Positions 3,811 to 61,981 of a stretch of DNA of 64,000 bases are shown in pieces (position 1 is the stretch's first letter; each line of letters opens with the position of its first letter). The DNA comes from Escherichia phage vB_Eco_OMNI12. The notes beneath the pieces were generated by a model, which had not been told where the DNA came from, ran no database searches, and was given only the letters and a program-made list of their open reading frames with translations. Location of the stretch: sequence record OL362041.1. The stretch is one strand, 5' to 3'. Both the position numbers and the translations under genes were made by a program.

Positions 3811-5517
3811 TTATGGATAGGTATAGATGATACCAGTTTCTAAAGCAGTTTTATGAATGATGTATCCATTGCGTGATTCTTGAACATCAACTTCTGGATA
3901 GTCTTTAATCATCTTCTGAAGAGTGTAACGATGCAGGTAGTATTTACTATCTGGGTCGTCAGTTTTCCAATCTTTACCTTCTTCGGTCATTTTTTGGATT
4001 TCATCCATAACCCACCAACCGCACCAGATATAAGCTGAAGTACGATGTGGAAGAGGATGAACATAAGGCAATTCACCTTCTGGTTCTGGAGCAACTTTAT
4101 CAGTTACCTGAACTTGACCTTCTGCTGTAATAGTTTTGCTATCGTAATCAGTTGCAGTAACGACAGCAGTAACTTCAATAGTTTGACTTCCAACAGATGA
4201 GGTATCGACAGTATATACGTTAGTTGACCCTTCTACAGGAGAAGAATCTTTCTTCCATGAGTAAGTAATTTGTGCTTCTTCTGGAGCACCCGTAACATTA
4301 GCCGTAAATGTAGCCGAAGCATCTTGCTGAACGTTAATAGAAGGAGGAGTCAATGTAACCTGTGGATTCATTGTTTTCTTATTAACAGTCAATGATACTT
4401 CATTAGAAGTAACTTCCTTTTCATTGTAATTTTCTGCAGTTACTTGCGCTACACACTTAACTGTTTTAGCTCCAACTGTGGTAGGAGTATAGTTAAATGT
4501 AGTAGTAGTTTCTCCATCGACCAGAGAACCGTCAACATACCACTGATACGTAGCAGACGCTCCTGGTGGCTGTGAATCCAAGGCAGCAGTAAATTGAACT
4601 GGGGTTCCAATTACTCCGGCAGCAGGATTAGCAGGAGTTACGGCTAACGTAGTTGTCTGTGTCTTCTTATTAACTGTTAATGATACTTCATTAGAAGTAA
4701 CGCTTAGTGCATCATAATCTGTTGCTGTTACTTGCGCTACGCATTTAATTCTTTTTACTCCACTTGTAGTTGGAGTATAGCTAAATGTAGCAGAAGTCGC
4801 TTCACCAATTTGAGAATCATCTACATACCACTGATACGTAGCAGATGCCCCATCAGGTTGAGAAGCTAAGGCAGCAGTAAATTCAACGGCTGTTCCAATC
4901 ACTCCAGCTGGAGGACTATCAGGAGTTACTGCCAAGGTAGTCGTCTGCGTCTTTTTATTAACAGTCAATGATACTTCATTAGAAGTAACGCTTAGTGCAT
5001 CATAATCTGCCGCAGTTACTTGAGCTACACACTTGATTTTTTTAACTCCGCTTGTGTCAGGAGTGTAATTGAATGTAGCGTCAGTTGCTTCGTCTACAGG
5101 AGAACCGTCAACGTGCCATTGATACGTAGCGTTTGCACCTGATGGCTGTGAAGCTAAGGCAGCGGTAAATTCAATTGGAGTTCCAATCACTCCAGCATCA
5201 GGGCTACCAGGAGTTACTGCCAAAGTAGTTGTTTGTGTCTTATTTTGAACTGTGATAGTTGTACTAATTTCAGCTGTTTCAGGTTCAGATTCTGCAACTT
5301 GATTGGTTGCAACTACTTTAATAGTCTTTTGACCGGCAGGTCCTTTTAGTACATAACTAAAAGTTGCTGACGTTTCTTCCTGTGGAGCGTCGTCTACAGT
5401 CCAAGCATATGTAATAGGTCCATCTCCAGTTTGACCACTGGGTGTAGCAGTAAACTGCTTAGTTTCATCAATAACCCCTGTCGGTGTTTTAGGAGTTATA
5501 TCAACTGTAAAAGTCAT
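3811..5517 (-). CDS. hoc: Hoc outer capsid decoration protein, expanded (568 aa) with extra Ig-like domains
   Basis: Ser/Thr-rich Ig-like repeats plus C-terminal capsid-binding region; position after 24.x as in T4. Confidence 0.85.
   Translation of the reverse strand: MTFTVDITPKTPTGVIDETKQFTATPSGQTGDGPITYAWTVDDAPQEETSATFSYVLKGPAGQKTIKVVATNQVAESEPETAEISTTITVQNKTQTTTLAVTPGSPDAGVIGTPIEFTAALASQPSGANATYQWHVDGSPVDEATDATFNYTPDTSGVKKIKCVAQVTAADYDALSVTSNEVSLTVNKKTQTTTLAVTPDSPPAGVIGTAVEFTAALASQPDGASATYQWYVDDSQIGEATSATFSYTPTTSGVKRIKCVAQVTATDYDALSVTSNEVSLTVNKKTQTTTLAVTPANPAAGVIGTPVQFTAALDSQPPGASATYQWYVDGSLVDGETTTTFNYTPTTVGAKTVKCVAQVTAENYNEKEVTSNEVSLTVNKKTMNPQVTLTPPSINVQQDASATFTANVTGAPEEAQITYSWKKDSSPVEGSTNVYTVDTSSVGSQTIEVTAVVTATDYDSKTITAEGQVQVTDKVAPEPEGELPYVHPLPHRTSAYIWCGWWVMDEIQKMTEEGKDWKTDDPDSKYYLHRYTLQKMIKDYPEVDVQESRNGYIIHKTALETGIIYTYP
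4381..5244 (-). repeat. Three tandem ~288 bp coding repeats (Ig-like domain triplication) inside hoc
   Basis: Protein repeat KKTQTTTLAVTP...SNEVSLTVN occurs three times at about 90 percent identity; DNA repeats visible near 4372, 4660 and 4940. Confidence 0.85.
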
Positions 5518-16297: not shown

Positions 16298-16328
16298 ATG
16301 GGGACCTTTCGGTCCCCATATTTTTATT
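16298..16328. terminator. Bidirectional terminator between gene 54 and the alt cluster
   Basis: TGGGGACC-TTTC-GGTCCCCA followed by TATTTTTATTT. Confidence 0.65.
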
Positions 16329-16614
16329 TACGGAATGAAATGAAAGCAGCAACTGAAGCAACTAAACTGTCTTCAATATAAACTTCAATTTTTACCGGAG
16401 CTTCTGACTCAAATTTACCTGTTACTACACCCTGAAAAATACTTTCAGTCTGTTCTGGCTTTGAAAAATTTTCAGAAGGAAAAATTCCGAACTTTTTATC
16501 TGTTCCAAAAATTTTGATAAATTCATCGTAAACTGCTTCATTAAAAGCATTATCAGCAGGAATAACGCCTTCAACTACAAGTTCTTGACCTAAAAAGCGC
16601 AAAGAAGATTTCAT
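16324..16614 (-). CDS. Hypothetical protein (alt.-3 position)
   Basis: 96 aa ORF with GAGGAA Shine-Dalgarno, preceded by an early promoter. Confidence 0.6.
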   Translation of the reverse strand: MKSSLRFLGQELVVEGVIPADNAFNEAVYDEFIKIFGTDKKFGIFPSENFSKPEQTESIFQGVVTGKFESEAPVKIEVYIEDSLVASVAAFISFRK

Positions 16615-16645
16615 TTTGTGTTCCTCATGTTATGTCAGTAAGACT

Positions 16646-16674
16646 ACTATAACACAACACGAGGGACTTGTAAA
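16646..16674 (-). promoter_or_regulatory. Early promoter (TTTACA-N17-TATAGT)
   Basis: Read on the - strand; a near-identical ~55 bp copy lies at 32568-32622. Confidence 0.6.
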
Positions 16675-18732
16675 CTACATCTTGAACTTTTTAGACATTC
16701 CGTTGATGTTAACCAAAGAAGCTAAGATTTGAGAAACTTCGTTTTCCTCTTCTTTTGATTCTTCTACAAGGAATTGATTAAATCCAGCCATTGGACGAAC
16801 TTCACCAGTTTCCATTAGATGGTCGCCATCATATACTGATTCTTCTAATTGTTCAGAAGGAGGAACGATTGTACCTTCGATTAGATACTTGTTATAAGCA
16901 GTTTCTTTCATAAAGTAAGTACTTACTTTATTAATCTTCAGTAAAATTCCACGTGGTAGAATAACTTCAGCTTCTGACGGAAATCCTGATAAATGACCCG
17001 GAACGATAACTTTGATTCGCTCAGCTCCTTTAATTACCATACCCACGCTAGTTTCAGCATCTTCATTAGCATATGTAGAATGACTACCCATATGCATCAA
17101 ATCTTCTGCATCAACGGAACCTTCTCCTTCACCAGAAAATACTGCGCCGGAATCATCTAGAGCCATATAGTTTTTACCATGCTCACCGAAGATATTTGGT
17201 TTAAGCGATGTGGATACGAAGTTCTTGAAATAGAACATTTTATTTTCAATGTTATGACGCAAAGTTTTAAAGGTAACTTCTTGTCCACGGTAAAGTGTAG
17301 TTCCTGGAGGAAGAACTGAACCTTTAGCGAATGCAGAATCAAGCGTCTCAATATGTTTAATAGCTCGTTCCATATATTCTTCACGGGTAGAATCTGGTTT
17401 ACCCAAAAGGAACGAGTTCATTTCAACATATGAATCTGCACAATAATCTTCAATTACATCAGATTCAGCTTGAGTTAATCCTTTTGGAGTTACTTCAGTG
17501 CTTGCGTATTCATATGCCTGAGCAGCAGATTCATTAATCAATTTATAAATGCCATTCATGACAAATTGAATAATAGCTGTCTTTTCATCTGGCGTAGCTT
17601 TAGAACCTTTAACCAAATCATTGATAATTTTCTTAATAACATCAAAGCTATTAGAAATATTAATATCAGCAAGATCGCTTAAAATTTTATCAGTCTTATA
17701 ATCAAAGAATTCTTTATTCTTTAAATATTCTTGAGAACCTTGATATGTTATATCGCTCTGTAACTTGATAGATGGATCACGTAAACGTGCATGGGCTAAT
17801 GCAATATGATTTCGGAAGCTTTCGAGTTCATAATCACTAGATTTAAAACGAGAAGCGCTTCTCATACCGCCTATAGCTCCTTTGCTGAAGTTTGAACCAA
17901 TTTGAATAACGCCAGAGTTCATTGGTCCTTCTGCTTTATACACCGGAACTTTAGATTCAAACTCTTGATATTTCTTAGCAGCGAAGCTATCACCCTGAAG
18001 TGAAGCATCAACAGTAGAATATTGAGCTTGTGCTGCTAATCGACGACTAATTTTAGTTTTCTGAATAACAGCTTGGTCCGTGCGCTTATCATTTTCTAAA
18101 GCAATAGAAGCAGCAACAGCAACAGCTTTAGGAACAGCATTACCTGTTTTAACATCTACATAAACATCACCAACCTTTGATTCAACTTTTGTGAATAACT
18201 CAGTTGAAATAGGAGGTACACCTGGAATGTCTTCTAAATTGGCATTTTTACGATAAACCATAATATATGCGTACTTTTTATCATAATCCCAGATTTCCTT
18301 TAAAAGAACATATCGACCTGCTCCTTTAGTACGTACTAAACGGTCAGCAATAACTTGCATTTGACGAGCAGCGCCATTTGTTTTACTCTTTAGTACGCGG
18401 AATAAGCATGCATCAATTTTATACTGTTTCATTGTTTGAAGAGCAGTATCAAAAACAGCGTTAATGACGCCAATTGGATTTCCACCCAAGTTTCTAAGTT
18501 TAACCAGTGATAATTTCTCGTTGACACCTATCATTACGATATGCATCATTTTATCGCCTGGCTTAACGTTTTTATTCGTATCACCACCAGAGGTGTATGT
18601 ACAAAATCTAAATCCAGGAAGCACGCTTTCTTCGCCGGCTTGAATAGCAAAAATTTGTGGTATTTTATGCTTAGGATTTAAGTTAACAACCGGCGCCGAA
18701 GCGCCGTCAAATAATTCTGTAATAAGTTCCAT
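16675..18732 (-). CDS. Alt-family ADP-ribosyltransferase, second paralog
   Basis: 685 aa; N-terminus MELITELFD like Alt; C-terminal LYRG...FVSTS...EAEVILP (R-S-ExE ART motifs). Confidence 0.8.
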   Translation of the reverse strand: MELITELFDGASAPVVNLNPKHKIPQIFAIQAGEESVLPGFRFCTYTSGGDTNKNVKPGDKMMHIVMIGVNEKLSLVKLRNLGGNPIGVINAVFDTALQTMKQYKIDACLFRVLKSKTNGAARQMQVIADRLVRTKGAGRYVLLKEIWDYDKKYAYIMVYRKNANLEDIPGVPPISTELFTKVESKVGDVYVDVKTGNAVPKAVAVAASIALENDKRTDQAVIQKTKISRRLAAQAQYSTVDASLQGDSFAAKKYQEFESKVPVYKAEGPMNSGVIQIGSNFSKGAIGGMRSASRFKSSDYELESFRNHIALAHARLRDPSIKLQSDITYQGSQEYLKNKEFFDYKTDKILSDLADINISNSFDVIKKIINDLVKGSKATPDEKTAIIQFVMNGIYKLINESAAQAYEYASTEVTPKGLTQAESDVIEDYCADSYVEMNSFLLGKPDSTREEYMERAIKHIETLDSAFAKGSVLPPGTTLYRGQEVTFKTLRHNIENKMFYFKNFVSTSLKPNIFGEHGKNYMALDDSGAVFSGEGEGSVDAEDLMHMGSHSTYANEDAETSVGMVIKGAERIKVIVPGHLSGFPSEAEVILPRGILLKINKVSTYFMKETAYNKYLIEGTIVPPSEQLEESVYDGDHLMETGEVRPMAGFNQFLVEESKEEENEVSQILASLVNINGMSKKFKM

Positions 18733-18735
18733 GAT

Positions 18736-20793
18736 TTATCCTTGAACGAACTTGTAAGGCATGTTTGCAATATCTATACAAGACGCAATAATTCCAAGAG
18801 ATGATTCTACTTTCTGTTTAACATTTGATGAAACAAATGATGCAAAATCAACTCTGTCTTCTATTTCAATATCACCTGTCATTGTAACTACTTCGCCGGT
18901 TTCCATTAGACGGTCACCGTCATAAATTACCGATTCGGTGAGTTCTTCTGTGGTCATAACTTCAGCTTGAATAAGCTTGTTGTTAGTTTTAACTGTTCCA
19001 TCATTGTAAGATGCATCGGTTATTTTATTAACTTTGACCATTAATCCACGTGGCAAAATGACTTCCATTTCATTTGAAGGTGCTAAACTTCCACCTGGTA
19101 AAACAACATTGACTTTATCAGCCCCAGTAATAACCCATCCAATTCCAACTAAATTATCGCTAGAATTTACTAGTCCTTCATCAGTTTTATCAATAGAAAC
19201 ACTTAAACGCTTTTCGTCTGGTAAAACACCCACAGATGAATCAGTCATCCAGGTACCAAAAATATTTGGATATAATGATGTTGACACAAAATTTCTAAAA
19301 TAAAAAACTCGATTTTTTACCAGTGCTTCATATATTGAAGGTAACATTCGTTGTGAACGATACAAAGTAATACCTTTTGGTAATCGTTCACCATTTTTAA
19401 AGGCAGAATCTAAATTATCAATAGCTTTTTCTATATCAGATGCTGTCAAAATACTTGTACGCTCATCTGGATTATATAATCCCAAAAGAGCGTTATTTAT
19501 GTCTACATATCCTGAACTTACGTATTCACGAATTCCGCGTTTTTGTGCCGGTGTGTATTTAGATGAATCTTTATTTTCGACTATAGGATGTAGTGACCAT
19601 CCAGCGGTAAGAGCATATCCACGCAATTCTCTTCGAATAATCTTTGTTTTTATTGCATTCCAAGAATTTTGTACTAACTCATTCGCAGCATCTTGATTTA
19701 AATGCGAATGCTTGTTAATGTTTCTTTCTAACCAAGCACCTTTATATTTTTCTAAAGTATCATCAACTATAGAAGCAATAGTTTCTAAAGTTTTTATTGA
19801 AGTAATAGATTCTTTTCGTAATCTTTCTAAAGCTTTATTTTTTATTTCTGCATTAACATCAGATTCTTTATCTTCAGGAATTATAGAAGCTTCTCTGAAT
19901 GCCATTCCAGCTGTAACACTACTAAGAGCATTCTCTAATGCAAATCCTGAAGTAGAAATAACAGTTAATTCATTAGCGTCAGAAATTAAAGGAGCGTCAG
20001 CAGGTTTATTTAATTCTGCTGCTGAAGCCTCAAATTTTTGAAACATCGGCGTTTCAAATCTAGAAGATTCCAATGATTGACTTTGCGCAATTGCTCTACG
20101 GGAAATTTTAACTTTAACGATTACAGCTTGGTCAGAACGTTTATCATTTTCTTGTGCAATAGATGCTGCAATTGCCTCATTTTTGGTTACTTGAACTCCG
20201 GTATCTTTATTGATATAAACATCACCGACCTTCGATTCAACTTTAGTAAAGAGCTCGGTACTAATTTCCGGAACTCCTGGAATGTCTTCTAGTGATACAT
20301 TTTTGCGATGTATAAGAATATATGCATACTTTTTATCATAATCCCAGAGTTCCTTAAGAAGGACGTATCTGCCACCTGAACGACTACGGATAAGTCTATC
20401 AGCAATAACTTGAATTTGTCGAGCTTGACCAGCGGTTTTAGACTTAAGAATACGAAGCATACAAGCATCAATTTTATACTGACGCATTGTTTGCATTGCA
20501 ACAGTAAAAACTGAATTGATATAATTAATTGGGCTTGGACCAAGACCTTTTAATTTAGCAATTGAACCTTTAGCAGTTAATGTAAAAGGAACAATATGCA
20601 TCATTTTATCGCCCATCTTTAAATCGCGATTAGTATCACCTCCAGATGTATAGGTACATAAACGAAAACCTGGTTGTTCAATTGCATCATCAACATGAAC
20701 TGAAAAAATTTGTGGTATTTTCTTCTTTGGATTTAAGTTTGTAATCGGAAGAGTAGTATCTTCGTCAAATAATTCTGTAATAAGTTCCATCAT
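18736..20793 (-). CDS. alt: Alt ADP-ribosyltransferase (virion-packaged, modifies host RNA polymerase)
   Basis: 685 aa; LYRS...FVSTS...EMEVILP motifs; position next to gene 30. Confidence 0.85.
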   Translation of the reverse strand: MMELITELFDEDTTLPITNLNPKKKIPQIFSVHVDDAIEQPGFRLCTYTSGGDTNRDLKMGDKMMHIVPFTLTAKGSIAKLKGLGPSPINYINSVFTVAMQTMRQYKIDACMLRILKSKTAGQARQIQVIADRLIRSRSGGRYVLLKELWDYDKKYAYILIHRKNVSLEDIPGVPEISTELFTKVESKVGDVYINKDTGVQVTKNEAIAASIAQENDKRSDQAVIVKVKISRRAIAQSQSLESSRFETPMFQKFEASAAELNKPADAPLISDANELTVISTSGFALENALSSVTAGMAFREASIIPEDKESDVNAEIKNKALERLRKESITSIKTLETIASIVDDTLEKYKGAWLERNINKHSHLNQDAANELVQNSWNAIKTKIIRRELRGYALTAGWSLHPIVENKDSSKYTPAQKRGIREYVSSGYVDINNALLGLYNPDERTSILTASDIEKAIDNLDSAFKNGERLPKGITLYRSQRMLPSIYEALVKNRVFYFRNFVSTSLYPNIFGTWMTDSSVGVLPDEKRLSVSIDKTDEGLVNSSDNLVGIGWVITGADKVNVVLPGGSLAPSNEMEVILPRGLMVKVNKITDASYNDGTVKTNNKLIQAEVMTTEELTESVIYDGDRLMETGEVVTMTGDIEIEDRVDFASFVSSNVKQKVESSLGIIASCIDIANMPYKFVQG

Positions 20794-20813: not shown

Positions 20814-20821
20814 TATTTATA
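20814..20821 (-). promoter_or_regulatory. Late promoter (TATAAATA) upstream of alt
   Basis: TATAAATA on the - strand about 20 nt before the alt start. Confidence 0.5.
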
Positions 20822-24786: not shown

Positions 24787-25164
24787 TTAAATATCAAATT
24801 CGTTAAGAACTACATCAAAGATTGCTTCAAGATGCTCAGGTTTAGCTCTGTTACTCAGAATATGACGAATCCAAGTTTTAACCAAAAGCTTGCGATTAAC
24901 GCCATTCCAGCAAGGATGAGTCCCTAAATCGCGTTCACGGAAATCATCATCCAGAGCGATTTTAAAGTTGGAACCTTCCATCGTGATTGAAACCGTGATA
25001 CCGTTTTCAAATCGCATATAAACGTAATTAGGAGTCATATACTGCTCAATTTCGCATACTGATCCATTTTGATGTTTCCAAAGGCAAATAGTATCAATAG
25101 AACCTGCAATACTATTAGAAACATATTTACGTTCAAAGTTGATGTAGTTCATTTTATTCTCCAA
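24787..25164 (-). CDS. Hypothetical protein
   Basis: 125 aa ORF. Confidence 0.55.
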   Translation of the reverse strand: MENKMNYINFERKYVSNSIAGSIDTICLWKHQNGSVCEIEQYMTPNYVYMRFENGITVSITMEGSNFKIALDDDFRERDLGTHPCWNGVNRKLLVKTWIRHILSNRAKPEHLEAIFDVVLNEFDI

Positions 25165-25219
25165 GATGTTTAATTGCGGTACAGGTATATAATATCATAT
25201 CCTGTACCAAAGTAAACAA

Positions 25220-25552
25220 TTATTTTACTACTTTCCAATGCTGCATGTCAAGTTTACCAACTTTTTTCATCTTCTCAATTAAGCGTTCGGCACGTTGGCG
25301 AGCTGTAACATAATACCATTCACCTAATTCATTTTGTTCAATTTTTCCAACGATTACTGTATTCAATTCATAAATCCAACCAGTAAAGAAATTATGAACT
25401 TGAATTGTAAAGGTGAAATCTGTTCCCATACCTTCTGTTGTTTCTACTTCAATAATATCACCTTCAACTGCCATTAAGAACCACATAGTTTCATCATATT
25501 TACCATTGAAGCATTTAGTTTTAACTGCAGCGTTCAGATTAATCGTTTTCAT
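25220..25552 (-). CDS. Hypothetical protein
   Basis: 110 aa ORF with GGAG upstream. Confidence 0.55.
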   Translation of the reverse strand: MKTINLNAAVKTKCFNGKYDETMWFLMAVEGDIIEVETTEGMGTDFTFTIQVHNFFTGWIYELNTVIVGKIEQNELGEWYYVTARQRAERLIEKMKKVGKLDMQHWKVVK

Positions 25553-25627
25553 TTTATTCTCCTTTGTTTGTGTAAGATAATACTATCACAAAGGAACCAT
25601 ACTGTAAACAACTTTATGCAATCTTTG

Positions 25628-28720: not shown

Positions 28721-29241
28721 GTTGATCCTAGCTCCTTACTTTCAACATTTTTAACTAATTTGACAGAAACTAATTCAGCATCTTGGGTAATCATTACCGG
28801 ACCTTCTTCATGCTCTTCAAGATATTCTAGAGCTTTCTTTTTAGCTTCTTCCTTCGTATCAGTTTGAGCATAGATATAGAACATACAACCAGTAATACCT
28901 ACTACTTTCCACTTAATTTCTTTATCAGTTTTAATTTCAAATTTACTTACAGAATCATCTTTTTGAACTTCTTCGAAAAAAGAATATTCTAACATATAAG
29001 CAATTGAAAATAACGGGCTAACTTTATAGGATTCACCCATTACATCAACAGCTTTATACCAACAATCATCAATTTCACGTTTAATGCTAATAACATTTTT
29101 CGCAGGATCTATTTTTACTTTAAATGAATTTTCCCCAATAAACTGGGCAATTCGTTTATTAGCCCCGCAAGTTTCATTAAAAATATCTTTATATCCAGCT
29201 TTAAAGCGATAAACCTTATCTTCTTCAAACCATTCGCTCAT
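28714..29241 (-). CDS. Hypothetical protein (cd.3 position)
   Basis: 175 aa ORF. Confidence 0.55.
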   Translation of the reverse strand: MSEWFEEDKVYRFKAGYKDIFNETCGANKRIAQFIGENSFKVKIDPAKNVISIKREIDDCWYKAVDVMGESYKVSPLFSIAYMLEYSFFEEVQKDDSVSKFEIKTDKEIKWKVVGITGCMFYIYAQTDTKEEAKKKALEYLEEHEEGPVMITQDAELVSVKLVKNVESKELGSTC

Positions 29242-29303
29242 TTCAATTTCCTCATTTGTTTTGGTAGAGCTATAATATCACAACTCTACCGTAAAGTAAA
29301 CTA

Positions 29304-31717: not shown

Positions 31718-32067
31718 TTAGAAAGGTCCTGGATGTCTTCTGCGAACTTGTTGAAGGAGTTGTTGATTTGTTTTTCAACCAATCCTGGCTTACGAGCCAC
31801 CACATCCGCCTTCTTTGCATCTTTGCGCAGTTTTTCATTTTCACGCTCAATAGCAGCAATCGCCTCACGATTTTTATTATTCATCGCATCAATATAATTA
31901 TACTGAATTCGCAAATTATTTAATGCTAAGGCGTTTTCATTGGCCGTTTTTGTAATTTCTACAACAGACGTTTCTAATCTTTCAATTTTATTTTTTAAAA
32001 TTAAAGAAGTTCCGCCTAATGCAATTACAATTAATAGCAAACCTGCTGTCGTATTACTTAATTGCAT
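31714..32067 (-). CDS. Inner-membrane spanin (Rz-like)
   Basis: N-terminal transmembrane segment then charged coiled-coil region, 117 aa. Confidence 0.65.
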   Translation of the reverse strand: MQLSNTTAGLLLIVIALGGTSLILKNKIERLETSVVEITKTANENALALNNLRIQYNYIDAMNNKNREAIAAIERENEKLRKDAKKADVVARKPGLVEKQINNSFNKFAEDIQDLSK

Positions 32068-32564
32068 AAAGTTTTAATAACCTCTATAATATCGTCTTGA
32101 GAAAGACCGTTAATTAAAATATGATGTTCAGCCGGAGATTTAGAAATTTTAAAGCATGCCTCAACATCTTCTGCCATATCCGATGCACTACGATTTGGAT
32201 TACTAATTCCAAGACGATGCTTTCCAGTCAAAGGATTAACGATGATATAGCATTTACAACTATTGATATGAACATTAGGTTGAGTCTGATTAATAAATAC
32301 ATCACAATCATATTTCGCAAGCTGATTTTCTAAAAAGACTTTCATCTCTTCAACCGCATCAGGAAGCATATCACGGGCTTGCTCAAGACGACGATTTCGA
32401 TATTCTTTAATGGTCGTTTTCCGCTTGACTTGCTTAGCTAAATCTTTCTTAAGATCGGTGATATATCCAACTCGACGGTTTCCTTTAAATACAGAAATCC
32501 CATCTGTAGTATCACCGTATGCTTCAACGACCATTTCAGTAGTAATGAGCTGCAAATCCATCAT
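32058..32564 (-). CDS. alc: Alc-like inhibitor of host transcription
   Basis: 168 aa, position between rnlA and the spanins as in T4. Confidence 0.65.
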   Translation of the reverse strand: MMDLQLITTEMVVEAYGDTTDGISVFKGNRRVGYITDLKKDLAKQVKRKTTIKEYRNRRLEQARDMLPDAVEEMKVFLENQLAKYDCDVFINQTQPNVHINSCKCYIIVNPLTGKHRLGISNPNRSASDMAEDVEACFKISKSPAEHHILINGLSQDDIIEVIKTLCN

Positions 32565-32592
32565 AAAGTCCTCATGTTATGTCAGTAAGACT

Positions 32593-32621
32593 ACTGTAAC
32601 ACAACACGAGGGACTTGTAAA
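32593..32621 (-). promoter_or_regulatory. Early promoter (TTTACA-N17-TACAGT)
   Basis: Near-identical ~55 bp copy of the element at 16622-16676. Confidence 0.6.
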
Positions 32622-32625
32622 CAGC

Positions 32626-34213
<1,588 letters not shown>

Positions 34214-61286: not shown

Positions 61287-61400
61287 TCACATAAATCCAA
61301 AGTAAGCGTTTAATACATCAATCATTAAAACGATTGGGAATATACTCAAAACTATTAGTATTATAACTACATTCCATATAGCTTTAACAATCTTTTTCAT
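61287..61400 (-). CDS. Small membrane peptide (37 aa from internal ATG)
   Basis: GGAGGAACAGAAA-ATG directly after the early promoter; MKKIVKAIWNVVIILIVLSIFPIVLM... Confidence 0.4.
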   Translation of the reverse strand: MKKIVKAIWNVVIILIVLSIFPIVLMIDVLNAYFGFM

Positions 61401-61428
61401 TTTCTGTTCCTCCGTAGTTGATAGGGTA

Positions 61429-61457
61429 ATAGTACCACGGAAGAACAGTCTTGTAAA
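61429..61457 (-). promoter_or_regulatory. Early promoter (TTTACA-N17-TACTAT)
   Basis: Read on the - strand. Confidence 0.6.
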
Positions 61458-61643
61458 CAACTTTTTTAAAAATATTCGTAATAAATGTGAATACCAATCA
61501 CTACTGCCGAAACTTGTGCAACCCACCACGCACAAGCAATAAGCACAGAATTCAAAATTTTCATAATAACCTCATCACAAAAGTAAATGTTAAACAAATT
61601 AATGGAATACTAATTAACCAAACGAAACACCAACATAATGAAC

Positions 61644-61907
61644 TCATAGTTCAATCTCAACGATTTCCAAGTGTTTTTGTTTTATTGCCTTTTTAACACA
61701 ATCATGGACTAAATATGACCATGAATCATTATATTCTCCATTAACTAATCGTTGGAGATCTTCACGTGATGATAAGTAAGGTTGATCTGATTCCCATTTT
61801 GATAAAAATACTGCAGTAAAAATATCTCCTTCATCTGTAGTTGAAGTCGTAAATGCAATAAATTCACCGGTAATTTTATGTTTAGCGTAATAAAATTTAA
61901 ATTTCAT
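61644..61907 (-). CDS. Hypothetical protein (87 aa from internal ATG)
   Basis: GGAGGAGTAAAA-ATG after the early promoter at 61935-61963. Confidence 0.5.
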   Translation of the reverse strand: MKFKFYYAKHKITGEFIAFTTSTTDEGDIFTAVFLSKWESDQPYLSSREDLQRLVNGEYNDSWSYLVHDCVKKAIKQKHLEIVEIEL

Positions 61908-61934
61908 TTTTACTCCTCCGTAGCTGATAGTTGT

Positions 61935-61963
61935 ATAGTACCACGGTCCTTGTGGTATGTAAA
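61935..61963 (-). promoter_or_regulatory. Early promoter (TTTACA-N17-TACTAT)
   Basis: Read on the - strand, lies inside the 3' end of the denB ORF. Confidence 0.55.
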
Positions 61964-61981
61964 CTGTTTTGTGAAAATTTT

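Follow-up and report, generated by a model that had tools for sequence, protein, structure and literature searches.

The occurrence of the same promoter and leader twice in one phage genome, some 16 kb apart and in front of two different genes, raises the question of what the repeated unit does and what keeps its two copies alike. The window analysed here is a stretch of 64,000 nucleotides (nt) from Escherichia phage vB_Eco_OMNI12 (record OL362041.1), and the element under study is a 54-bp cassette composed of an early promoter, a hairpin, a leader and a Shine-Dalgarno sequence, one copy of which lies upstream of the alt.-3 homologue and the other upstream of alc. The window belongs to the genus Tequatrovirus, with 100% identity to phages such as vB_EcoM_G4498 around copy 1 and 98.8% identity to close relatives around copy 2. 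On balance, the repeat is probably an early-expression cassette with translational insulation, which was derived from alc and has been kept alike at the two loci by selection on its stem together with occasional gene conversion.

Comparison of the window with itself yields a direct repeat of 54 bp with one mismatch, at 16622-16675 and 32569-32622 on the plus strand; both copies are read on the minus strand.

16622-16675 (minus strand): cassette copy 1, 54 bp, with early promoter, hairpin, leader and Shine-Dalgarno, upstream of alt.-3; exact repeat and covariance model, 29.5 bits
32569-32622 (minus strand): cassette copy 2, likewise 54 bp and differing from copy 1 at one base, upstream of alc; exact repeat and covariance model

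The sole difference between the copies is a T/C change at the third base of the -10 box, which reads TATAGT in copy 1 and TACAGT in copy 2 on the minus strand. The borders of the repeat are sharp, the alignment being identical from the G of GTTTACA through GAGGA and unrelated in the flanks on either side. Dinucleotide-preserving shuffles of the window yielded no comparable repeat match, and no third copy was found in the window with up to three mismatches allowed. Among the 11 early-promoter modules of the window, the identity of this pair from the -35 box to the ATG is 0.89, whereas the other pairs reach 0.73 at most and have a median of 0.60. The near-identical promoter-leader module with a single mismatch that the initial annotation had placed at two sites about 16 kb apart is therefore present. 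Its start was given correctly for copy 1 and should be 32569 instead of 32568 for copy 2, and the identity was drawn too short by 4 nt (TCCT), the full Shine-Dalgarno GAGGA being covered. The claims that the leader is identical up to the Shine-Dalgarno and that the likeness reaches past the -35 and -10 hexamers hold on proper alignment, where the whole 54 bp are identical bar one base.

Both cassettes are also present in T4 (AF158101), with the same borders and upstream of the same genes, alt.-3 and alc; the single change in the T4 alt.-3 cassette is another one, from G to A in the loop. A pattern scan of IMG/VR returned only about 10 true copies plus many chance matches, and GenBank phages, with about 500 Tequatrovirus records, were sampled instead for the population survey. 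A 121-bp query with copy 1 at its centre is present for the most part in 497 of these records and the corresponding query for copy 2 in 496, with two places per query in nearly all records among the matches listed.

The promoter within each copy was recognised by a promoter scan as GTTTACA, a spacer of 17 nt, a TGn extended -10 motif (TGT) and TATAGT or TACAGT. Downstream of the -10 box follow about 31 nt ending in GAGGA, which is preceded by a leader of about 25 nt, and the start codon lies 4-7 nt further on.

16669-16674 (minus strand): -35 hexamer TTTACA of copy 1 (GTTTACA including 16675); promoter scan
16646-16651 (minus strand): -10 hexamer of copy 1, TATAGT, directly after TGn and within the hairpin loop; promoter scan and fold
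16639 (minus strand): predicted start of transcription from copy 1, at an A some 7 nt past the -10 box and between the hairpin arms; placed from the -10 position, with the start of copy 2 correspondingly expected near 32586
32616-32621 (minus strand): -35 hexamer TTTACA of copy 2; promoter scan
32593-32598 (minus strand): -10 hexamer of copy 2, TACAGT, within the hairpin loop; promoter scan and fold

The scan thus confirms the promoter reading proposed initially (TTTACA, 17 nt, TATAGT or TACAGT) and adds to it the TG of the extended -10 motif, which precedes the -10 box in both copies. TTTACA-17-TATAGT matches the consensus at 10 of 12 positions and TTTACA-17-TACAGT at 9 of 12. Both copies fit the PST/T4-type early consensus TTTACW-N17-TAYWAT (PMC4122927) as well as the -35/TGn/-10 architecture ascribed to T4 early promoters (PMC2988021). 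Judged from these motifs, from which their activity and start sites are likewise predicted, both would be T4-type early sigma-70 promoters; some GenBank records carry an annotated predicted 'promoter' beneath the match. The sequence 5' of the -35 box, the position of the UP element, is A/T-rich in the 'uber' promoter (Hinton 2010, PMC2988021) and reads CTAAAAAGTTCAAGATGTA at the alt.-3 copy and CCCAGAAGGATACTAAGCT at the alc copy. These upstream flanks differ between the copies, and that of alc is not clearly A-rich.

The initial annotation treated the unit as a plain promoter and leader and overlooked an inverted repeat inside each cassette, whose arms pair across the Shine-Dalgarno. More specifically, the promoter spacer can pair with the leader and Shine-Dalgarno, and the loop between these arms holds the -10 box and the predicted start.

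16651-16664 (minus strand): 5' arm of the hairpin in copy 1, CCTCGTGTTGTGTT, wholly within the 17-nt spacer; RNA fold, including the module alone
16623-16636 (minus strand): 3' arm in copy 1, GACATAACATGAGG, taking in all but one base of the Shine-Dalgarno GAGGA (16622-16626); RNA fold and accessibility
32598-32611 (minus strand): 5' arm in copy 2; RNA fold, -28.9 kcal/mol
32570-32583 (minus strand): 3' arm in copy 2, taking in all but one base of the Shine-Dalgarno GAGGA (32569-32573); RNA fold and accessibility

The minus-strand RNA folds at -26.2 kcal/mol (z -4.1) for copy 1 and at -28.9 kcal/mol (z -4.0) for copy 2, and no shuffled sequence equals either value. In read-through RNA, a predicted unpaired probability of at most 0.03 applies to four of the five Shine-Dalgarno bases. 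When this RNA is given 150 nt of upstream sequence, the predicted cost of opening the Shine-Dalgarno is 11.5 kcal/mol at alt.-3 and 7.1 kcal/mol at alc. For RNA beginning at the predicted start of the cassette's own promoter, the predicted costs are 3.8 and 1.0 kcal/mol, respectively. At alc, the predicted unpaired probability of the Shine-Dalgarno rises from 0.03 in the read-through RNA to 0.76 in the RNA from its own promoter.

The distribution of this stem among related phages is revealing of its constraint. Among regions upstream of alc taken from 12 other genera or lineages, the same layout was found in seven genera (Gelderlandvirus, Jiaodavirus, Bragavirus, Dhakavirus, Karamvirus, Kanagawavirus and Winklervirus), with the 5' arm directly after GTTTACA, the -10 box in the loop and the Shine-Dalgarno contained in the 3' arm. 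The stem sequences themselves are genus-specific, for example UCUCCGUUUAGUU/AACUAAACGGAGA and ACCUCUCAUUUUUA/UGAAAAUGAGAGGU. A MAFFT alignment of all genera left Tequatrovirus and Dhakavirus out of register and was set aside, and a covariance model built from the five in-register genera was used in its place. In these five genera the stem comprises 13 pairs, with 96.9% of the cells paired and eight of the 13 pairs changed on both sides, compared with at most 57% paired in a slid control in which the partner was shifted by 1-3 columns. Eleven sequences placed on the covariance-model alignment, which being fitted to the model leans towards the structure, give 94.9% paired cells, compensatory changes in 10 of 13 pairs and a covariation score of 0.737, against at most 0.165 when slid. 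Covariance model R1, which was made without Tequatrovirus, retrieves the held-out modules of Jiaodavirus and Dhakavirus, and its best matches in the window and in T4 are in each case the two cassette copies (29.5-29.7 bits, E about 1e-3).

Variation within the genus, as sampled in about 10 of the roughly 500 Tequatrovirus genomes, follows the same pattern. The loop is variable at module positions 27, 29, 32, 33, 34 and 40, and every stem substitution found keeps or creates a pair: C15T together with G50A converts C-G to U-A, C15T alone gives U-G, G16A converts G-U to A-U, and new pairs are made by C11T with A54 and by A54G with C11. Because compensatory changes across genera are joined by pairing-preserving substitutions within Tequatrovirus, the stem is, on this comparative evidence, under selection.

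A mechanism for such a stem can be proposed, and comparative evidence makes it a well supported candidate. RNA initiated upstream would carry both arms, and its Shine-Dalgarno would be buried; for alt.-3 the silenced RNA would be the late transcripts that run from the alt promoter through both alt genes, and for alc it would be the transcripts through rnlA. RNA from the cassette's own promoter would lack the 5' arm and would leave the ribosome-binding site accessible. Translation of alc and of alt.-3 would in this way be tied to their own early promoters. That the hairpin forms in vivo and affects translation is what we infer from the modelled RNAs.

The arrangement of the neighbouring genes, all four of which flank the cassettes on the minus strand, bears on the read-through that this mechanism would require.

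16324-16614 (minus strand): alt.-3 homologue, 96 amino acids (aa), DUF5498 (Pfam), driven by copy 1; open reading frame (ORF), Pfam and T4 comparison
16675-18732 (minus strand): intact Alt paralogue, 685 aa, with ADP-ribosyltransferase domain; its stop codon TAG overlaps the G of GTTTACA
18736-20793 (minus strand): alt, upstream of the Alt paralogue
20814-20821 (minus strand): late-promoter consensus TATAAATA, just upstream of alt; motif scan
16298-16319 (either strand): two-way terminator-like hairpin between gene 54 and alt.-3, at the end of the unit; terminator scan
32058-32564 (minus strand): alc, 168 aa, Pfam ALC, driven by copy 2
32626-33750 (minus strand): rnlA (RNA ligase 1, 374 aa), with its stop codon 3 nt before the GTTTACA of copy 2

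Pfam matches and comparison with T4 agree with the downstream genes named initially, that is, the gene after the Alt paralogue, which is the alt.-3 homologue, and alc. The terminator scan lists no terminator-like site between the late promoter of alt and alt.-3, the next one being that at 16298-16319, after alt.-3; late alt transcripts should therefore run into alt.-3. No terminator-like site was found by scan between rnlA and alc either, and the late-promoter motif TATAAATA is absent from both cassettes. A late promoter directly upstream of rnlA was considered and rejected, since TATAAATA does not occur there. Just upstream of rnlA, at 33770-33805 on the minus strand, a MotA-box-like TGCTT is followed by TACTAT; this site is not relied on here, and it is not included among the mapped T4 middle promoters of Hinton 2010 (PMC2988021). 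Alc has been described as an immediate-early product (PMC2988021). For T4 Alt.-3, mutants with C-terminal extensions escape the CmdTAC defence by blocking degradation of CmdA (PMC11618068), an effect that concerns the protein and not its promoter. The gene upstream of the alt.-3 cassette is variable: the window has an intact Alt paralogue there, T4 retains alt.-1 and alt.-2 as remnants, and KAW1E185 has a single alt. The alc locus is conserved in the Tequatrovirus records, and no breakpoint falls within the cassette. The Alt paralogue (16675-18732) and alt (18736-20793) are full-length ADP-ribosyltransferases in tandem and are 41% identical.

Several observations weigh against translational insulation as the function of the cassette. 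The short RNA from the alt.-3 cassette's own promoter still pairs its Shine-Dalgarno weakly with the start of the coding sequence (unpaired probability 0.16, about 4 kcal/mol), and the modelled contrast between the two RNAs at alt.-3 is one of energy and not all-or-none. Across genera the fold energies of sense and antisense strands are mixed and do not settle whether the role lies in RNA or in DNA, and the sense RNA is not consistently favoured. Mosigvirus alc has a promoter without a stem over the Shine-Dalgarno, and the alc stem of Providencia phage PSTCR6 leaves the Shine-Dalgarno free; some lineages can thus do without the stem. As for the history of the copies, conversion is supported by a small sample, the 10 or so genomes mentioned above and not the full set of about 500. 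Finally, only 0-6 nt separate the upstream stop codons from the -35 box, and a terminating ribosome could melt the lower stem, with coupling and not silencing as the result. Among the other lineages sampled, an extra ORF intervenes at the alc locus of VR7, and Ac42 and phiAS4 have nothing comparable upstream of alc.

Such coupling is the first of the alternatives to be weighed. In this explanation the hairpin masks the Shine-Dalgarno unless a ribosome terminating on the upstream gene melts the lower stem, and downstream translation would track upstream translation. The geometry is suitable: the stop codon abuts or overlaps GTTTACA in both copies and in other genera (TAG overlaps the G in Bragavirus, Dhakavirus, Kanagawavirus and Winklervirus), and the bases that pair with the Shine-Dalgarno begin about 5-10 nt after the stop codon. 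Judging from general ribosome footprints, these bases would be within reach of a terminating ribosome. The dense packing of T4 genes, however, puts stop codons beside most T4 promoters, with or without a stem, and coupling offers no reason for the promoter to lie within the hairpin. Coupling is thus an unlikely account of the cassette.

A second alternative is that the repeat is simply a duplicated promoter and leader. On this view the copies are alike only because they were recently duplicated or converted, the inverted repeat does nothing, and the homology matters mainly for recombination that shuffles modules. The history of the two copies probably does include copying, which is part of the preferred account as well and which, like their near-identity and sharp borders, speaks for this alternative. 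In Dhakavirus, Mosigvirus, Kanagawavirus and Gelderlandvirus no stem covers the Shine-Dalgarno at alt.-3, and the gene has an early promoter with a small hairpin confined to the spacer. Because the layout recurs at alc in seven genera, while alt.-3 elsewhere is without the stem, the alc cassette is probably ancestral and would have been copied onto alt.-3 in the Tequatrovirus lineage, overwriting the alt.-3 promoter and leader. In other genera both loci share GTTTACA at one end and an (A)ACATGAGGA-like sequence at the other, which coincides with the borders of identity. Derived variants are common to both loci as well. Phage vB_EcoM-G28 (hereafter G28) has G29A and G32A on its alt.-3 copy and on both of its alc copies, a haplotype that in KAW1E185 and Manna occurs only at alt.-3; GBLB0003 has G16A and T27C in both copies; and the 5'-arm haplotype C11T-C15T-G16A is found at alc in UTI-E4 and at alt.-3 in GBLB0003. 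Since parallel mutation is unlikely for three shared multi-site haplotypes, gene conversion between the loci appears to be the better explanation. These variants, shared within or across genomes, support the duplication or gene conversion proposed in the initial annotation. The accompanying argument, that identity extending past the hexamers implies such an origin, is borne out for copying and fails as the whole cause, because the extended identity would reflect the selected hairpin as well as copying and conversion between the two loci.

The part of this alternative that concerns recombination fares less well. No rearrangement breakpoint was found inside either repeat, and both copies are retained beside the same genes in about 497 of the roughly 500 Tequatrovirus records; the idea that the copies are substrates for module shuffling, put forward with the first description of the pair, receives no support for this pair from the survey of related genomes. 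A crossover between the direct repeats would delete about 16 kb including genes 30 and 31, which are regarded as essential. Such a deletion is expected to be lethal, and therefore only non-crossover conversion would be left visible.

Rearrangement close to a cassette was observed in G28 (locus L058, 20030-20434), where a 351-bp tandem duplication extends from the 3' end of rnlA across the cassette into alc, of which it includes the first ~190 nt, and yields a truncated alc fragment fused to rnlA-derived sequence, together with a third cassette copy. The junction of this duplication is in coding sequence, outside the module, which also argues against shuffling at the repeat.

Parts of the cassette occur before other genes. 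In JK45 (L038, 2500-2561) and mobillu (L039), a 66-aa ORF of the ndd-denB region is preceded by the -10 box, leader and Shine-Dalgarno of the alt.-3 cassette followed by AACACAAAATG; the spacer differs from that of the alt.-3 cassette, and the ORF is unrelated. JK45 is labelled Tequatrovirus jaykay, yet its gene layout in the ndd-denB stretch is that of Mosigvirus mobillu. The alc module of Mosigvirus AV114 (L041, ~544-606) is 0.79-0.81 identical to the alt.-3 modules of Mosigvirus and Dhakavirus (L052, L053), which suggests a reverse replacement in Mosigvirus, with an alt.-3-type cassette put at alc; the annotated start of alc in AV114 (locus position 562) looks to be ~42 nt too far upstream. 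Both cases may be taken as hints of cassette sharing with other genes, and both would accord with plain duplication, as would the publication of PeSL cassettes as recombination substrates (PMC2839356, PMC4122927). A roleless inverted repeat, however, does not account for compensatory stem changes in seven genera or for Tequatrovirus stem substitutions that preserve pairing, and plain duplication alone is improbable.

The third alternative is that the stem-loop is a terminator or attenuator of the PeSL type, which stops or dampens upstream transcription and leaves downstream transcription to be set by the cassette's own promoter alone. PeSLs (PMC2839356; Comeau et al. 2014, PMC4122927) resemble the present cassettes closely: they are repeated intergenic units consisting of an upstream stop, an early promoter, a stem-loop, a Shine-Dalgarno and a start codon, the stem-loop lies between the -35 box and the -10 box or across the latter, and copies can exchange sequence. 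In RB49 and phi1 the PeSL stem-loops are placed between -35 and -10 or overlap the -10 box (Arbiol et al. 2010, PMC2839356), and one of them cut lacZ expression as much as a strong terminator (PMC2839356). The present element, too, follows directly after an upstream stop codon. The sequence signature of an intrinsic terminator is nevertheless missing: no U-run follows the stem in either copy (GAGGAACACAAAAUG, GAGGACUUUAUGAUG) or in the other genera, the sequence there being A-rich instead, and neither cassette site is listed in the terminator scan of the window. An intrinsic terminator was rejected on these grounds. Termination alone would also leave unexplained the constant cover of the Shine-Dalgarno by the 3' arm at alc, and a terminator or attenuator is accordingly held to have little likelihood.

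Unlike in the published PeSLs, in which the stem-loop is assigned a role as terminator or attenuator and the cassettes are recombination points, here the 3' arm includes the Shine-Dalgarno itself, no indel breakpoint maps to either copy, and the copies flank 16 kb of conserved genes instead of small ORFans. The word 'translation' is absent from the main text of the 2010 PeSL paper (PMC2839356). PeSLs lie in hyperplastic regions, beside indels or gene replacements that distinguish close relatives; at the present loci the gene before the alt.-3 cassette varies and the alc locus is conserved.

The weakest alternative, a DNA-level element such as a cruciform exposing the -10 box or the site of a dimeric protein controlling promoter or recombination, is very unlikely: it is favoured by the position of the -10 box at the centre of the inverted repeat, by stems at other early promoters of the window (25217, 29301) that cross the -10 without touching the Shine-Dalgarno and by antisense folds that in several genera about equal the sense folds in stability, but the arm sequences vary freely among genera save for the Shine-Dalgarno complement, unlike a protein-binding site, G-U pairs that would be mismatches in DNA, with C-A on the other strand, are tolerated (G16-U49, G21-U44, and U15-G50 in UTI-E4), and the Tequatrovirus sense fold is 6-8 kcal/mol more stable than the antisense.

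Translational insulation, the preferred function of the cassette, has its closest precedent in the hairpins of the T4 genes e, soc, 49 and I-TevI (PMC3014915). As in those genes, the Shine-Dalgarno is paired in RNA started upstream (a prediction in the present case), transcripts of an internal promoter lack the 5' arm and are translated (start and translation both being predictions here), and the structure is kept in relatives. The difference is one of timing: the hairpins of e, soc, 49 and I-TevI enclose a late promoter (TATAAATA) and keep early or middle read-through RNA silent, whereas the cassettes described here enclose an early promoter of the sigma-70 type and would silence middle or late read-through. 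Conserved repeats that contain a promoter have also been described at the internal-protein (IP) loci of T-even phages (Repoila et al. 1994, as related in PMC2839356 and PMC4122927). According to those accounts they share with the present pair early promoters, weak AT-rich stem-loops, an intergenic position and a link to exchange of neighbouring genes, and differ from it in flanking highly variable genes and being associated with gene replacement. The cassette is thus a variant of known T4 regulatory designs and not a new kind of element.

Neither alc nor alt.-3 is treated in the review of post-transcriptional control in T4 (PMC3014915), though the older T4 literature was only partly covered and an earlier description is possible; in a T4 time-course omics paper alc occurs only in the reference list. 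Searched with the Rfam covariance models, the window gave no match at gathering thresholds, and the region around copy 1 gave none with E allowed up to 1.

The two copies are not alone among the early promoters of this genome. In five of the 11 early-promoter modules of the window the spacer is significantly complementary to the module's own Shine-Dalgarno region. Beyond the cassette pair, the following were observed:

61398-61458 (minus strand): module with GTTTACA starting at 61458; spacer/Shine-Dalgarno run of 15 bp, p<0.0005
25550-25609 (minus strand): module upstream of the 30.8 homologue; spacer/Shine-Dalgarno run of 9 bp, p 0.02
61905-61964 (minus strand): module with a spacer/Shine-Dalgarno run of 7 bp, p 0.017
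25150-25217 and 29239-29301 (minus strand): modules with hairpins across the -10 box, -19.4 and -16.3 kcal/mol, respectively, not reaching the Shine-Dalgarno

The pairing of spacer with Shine-Dalgarno seems, from these runs, to be a recurrent design in the early regions of this genome. The stems at 25150-25217 and 29239-29301 are of the classic PeSL-like kind, and their role is not explained by sequestration. It may tentatively be proposed, at a confidence falling just short of probable, that T4-like phages use a general class of self-insulating early cassettes, in which an arm within the 17-nt spacer, complementary to the Shine-Dalgarno, would let only RNA from the cassette's own promoter be translated. 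Repetition of a different kind was seen elsewhere in the window, at 4373-5248, where three tandem copies of a 300-nt unit occur at a spacing of 288 nt and with 78% identity; by position these are probably the Ig-like repeats of hoc, and the counterpart in KAW1E185 is annotated as 'PKD domain protein'.

If such a class exists, many PeSL stem-loops that are now read as terminators would acquire a translational meaning, the cassettes would be explained as plug-and-play units that can be moved or converted between genes, and Alc-like proteins would be confined to the first minutes of infection despite later read-through transcription. The pair itself is a clean natural example of concerted evolution, in which 54-bp regulatory cassettes evolve together across 16 kb of a phage genome. 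Should the mechanism proposed for it hold, the nested-promoter hairpin principle of T4 would be extended from late to immediate-early genes and would provide a simple time limit for Alc, and the spacer of a strong promoter would be seen to carry a second, RNA-level code.

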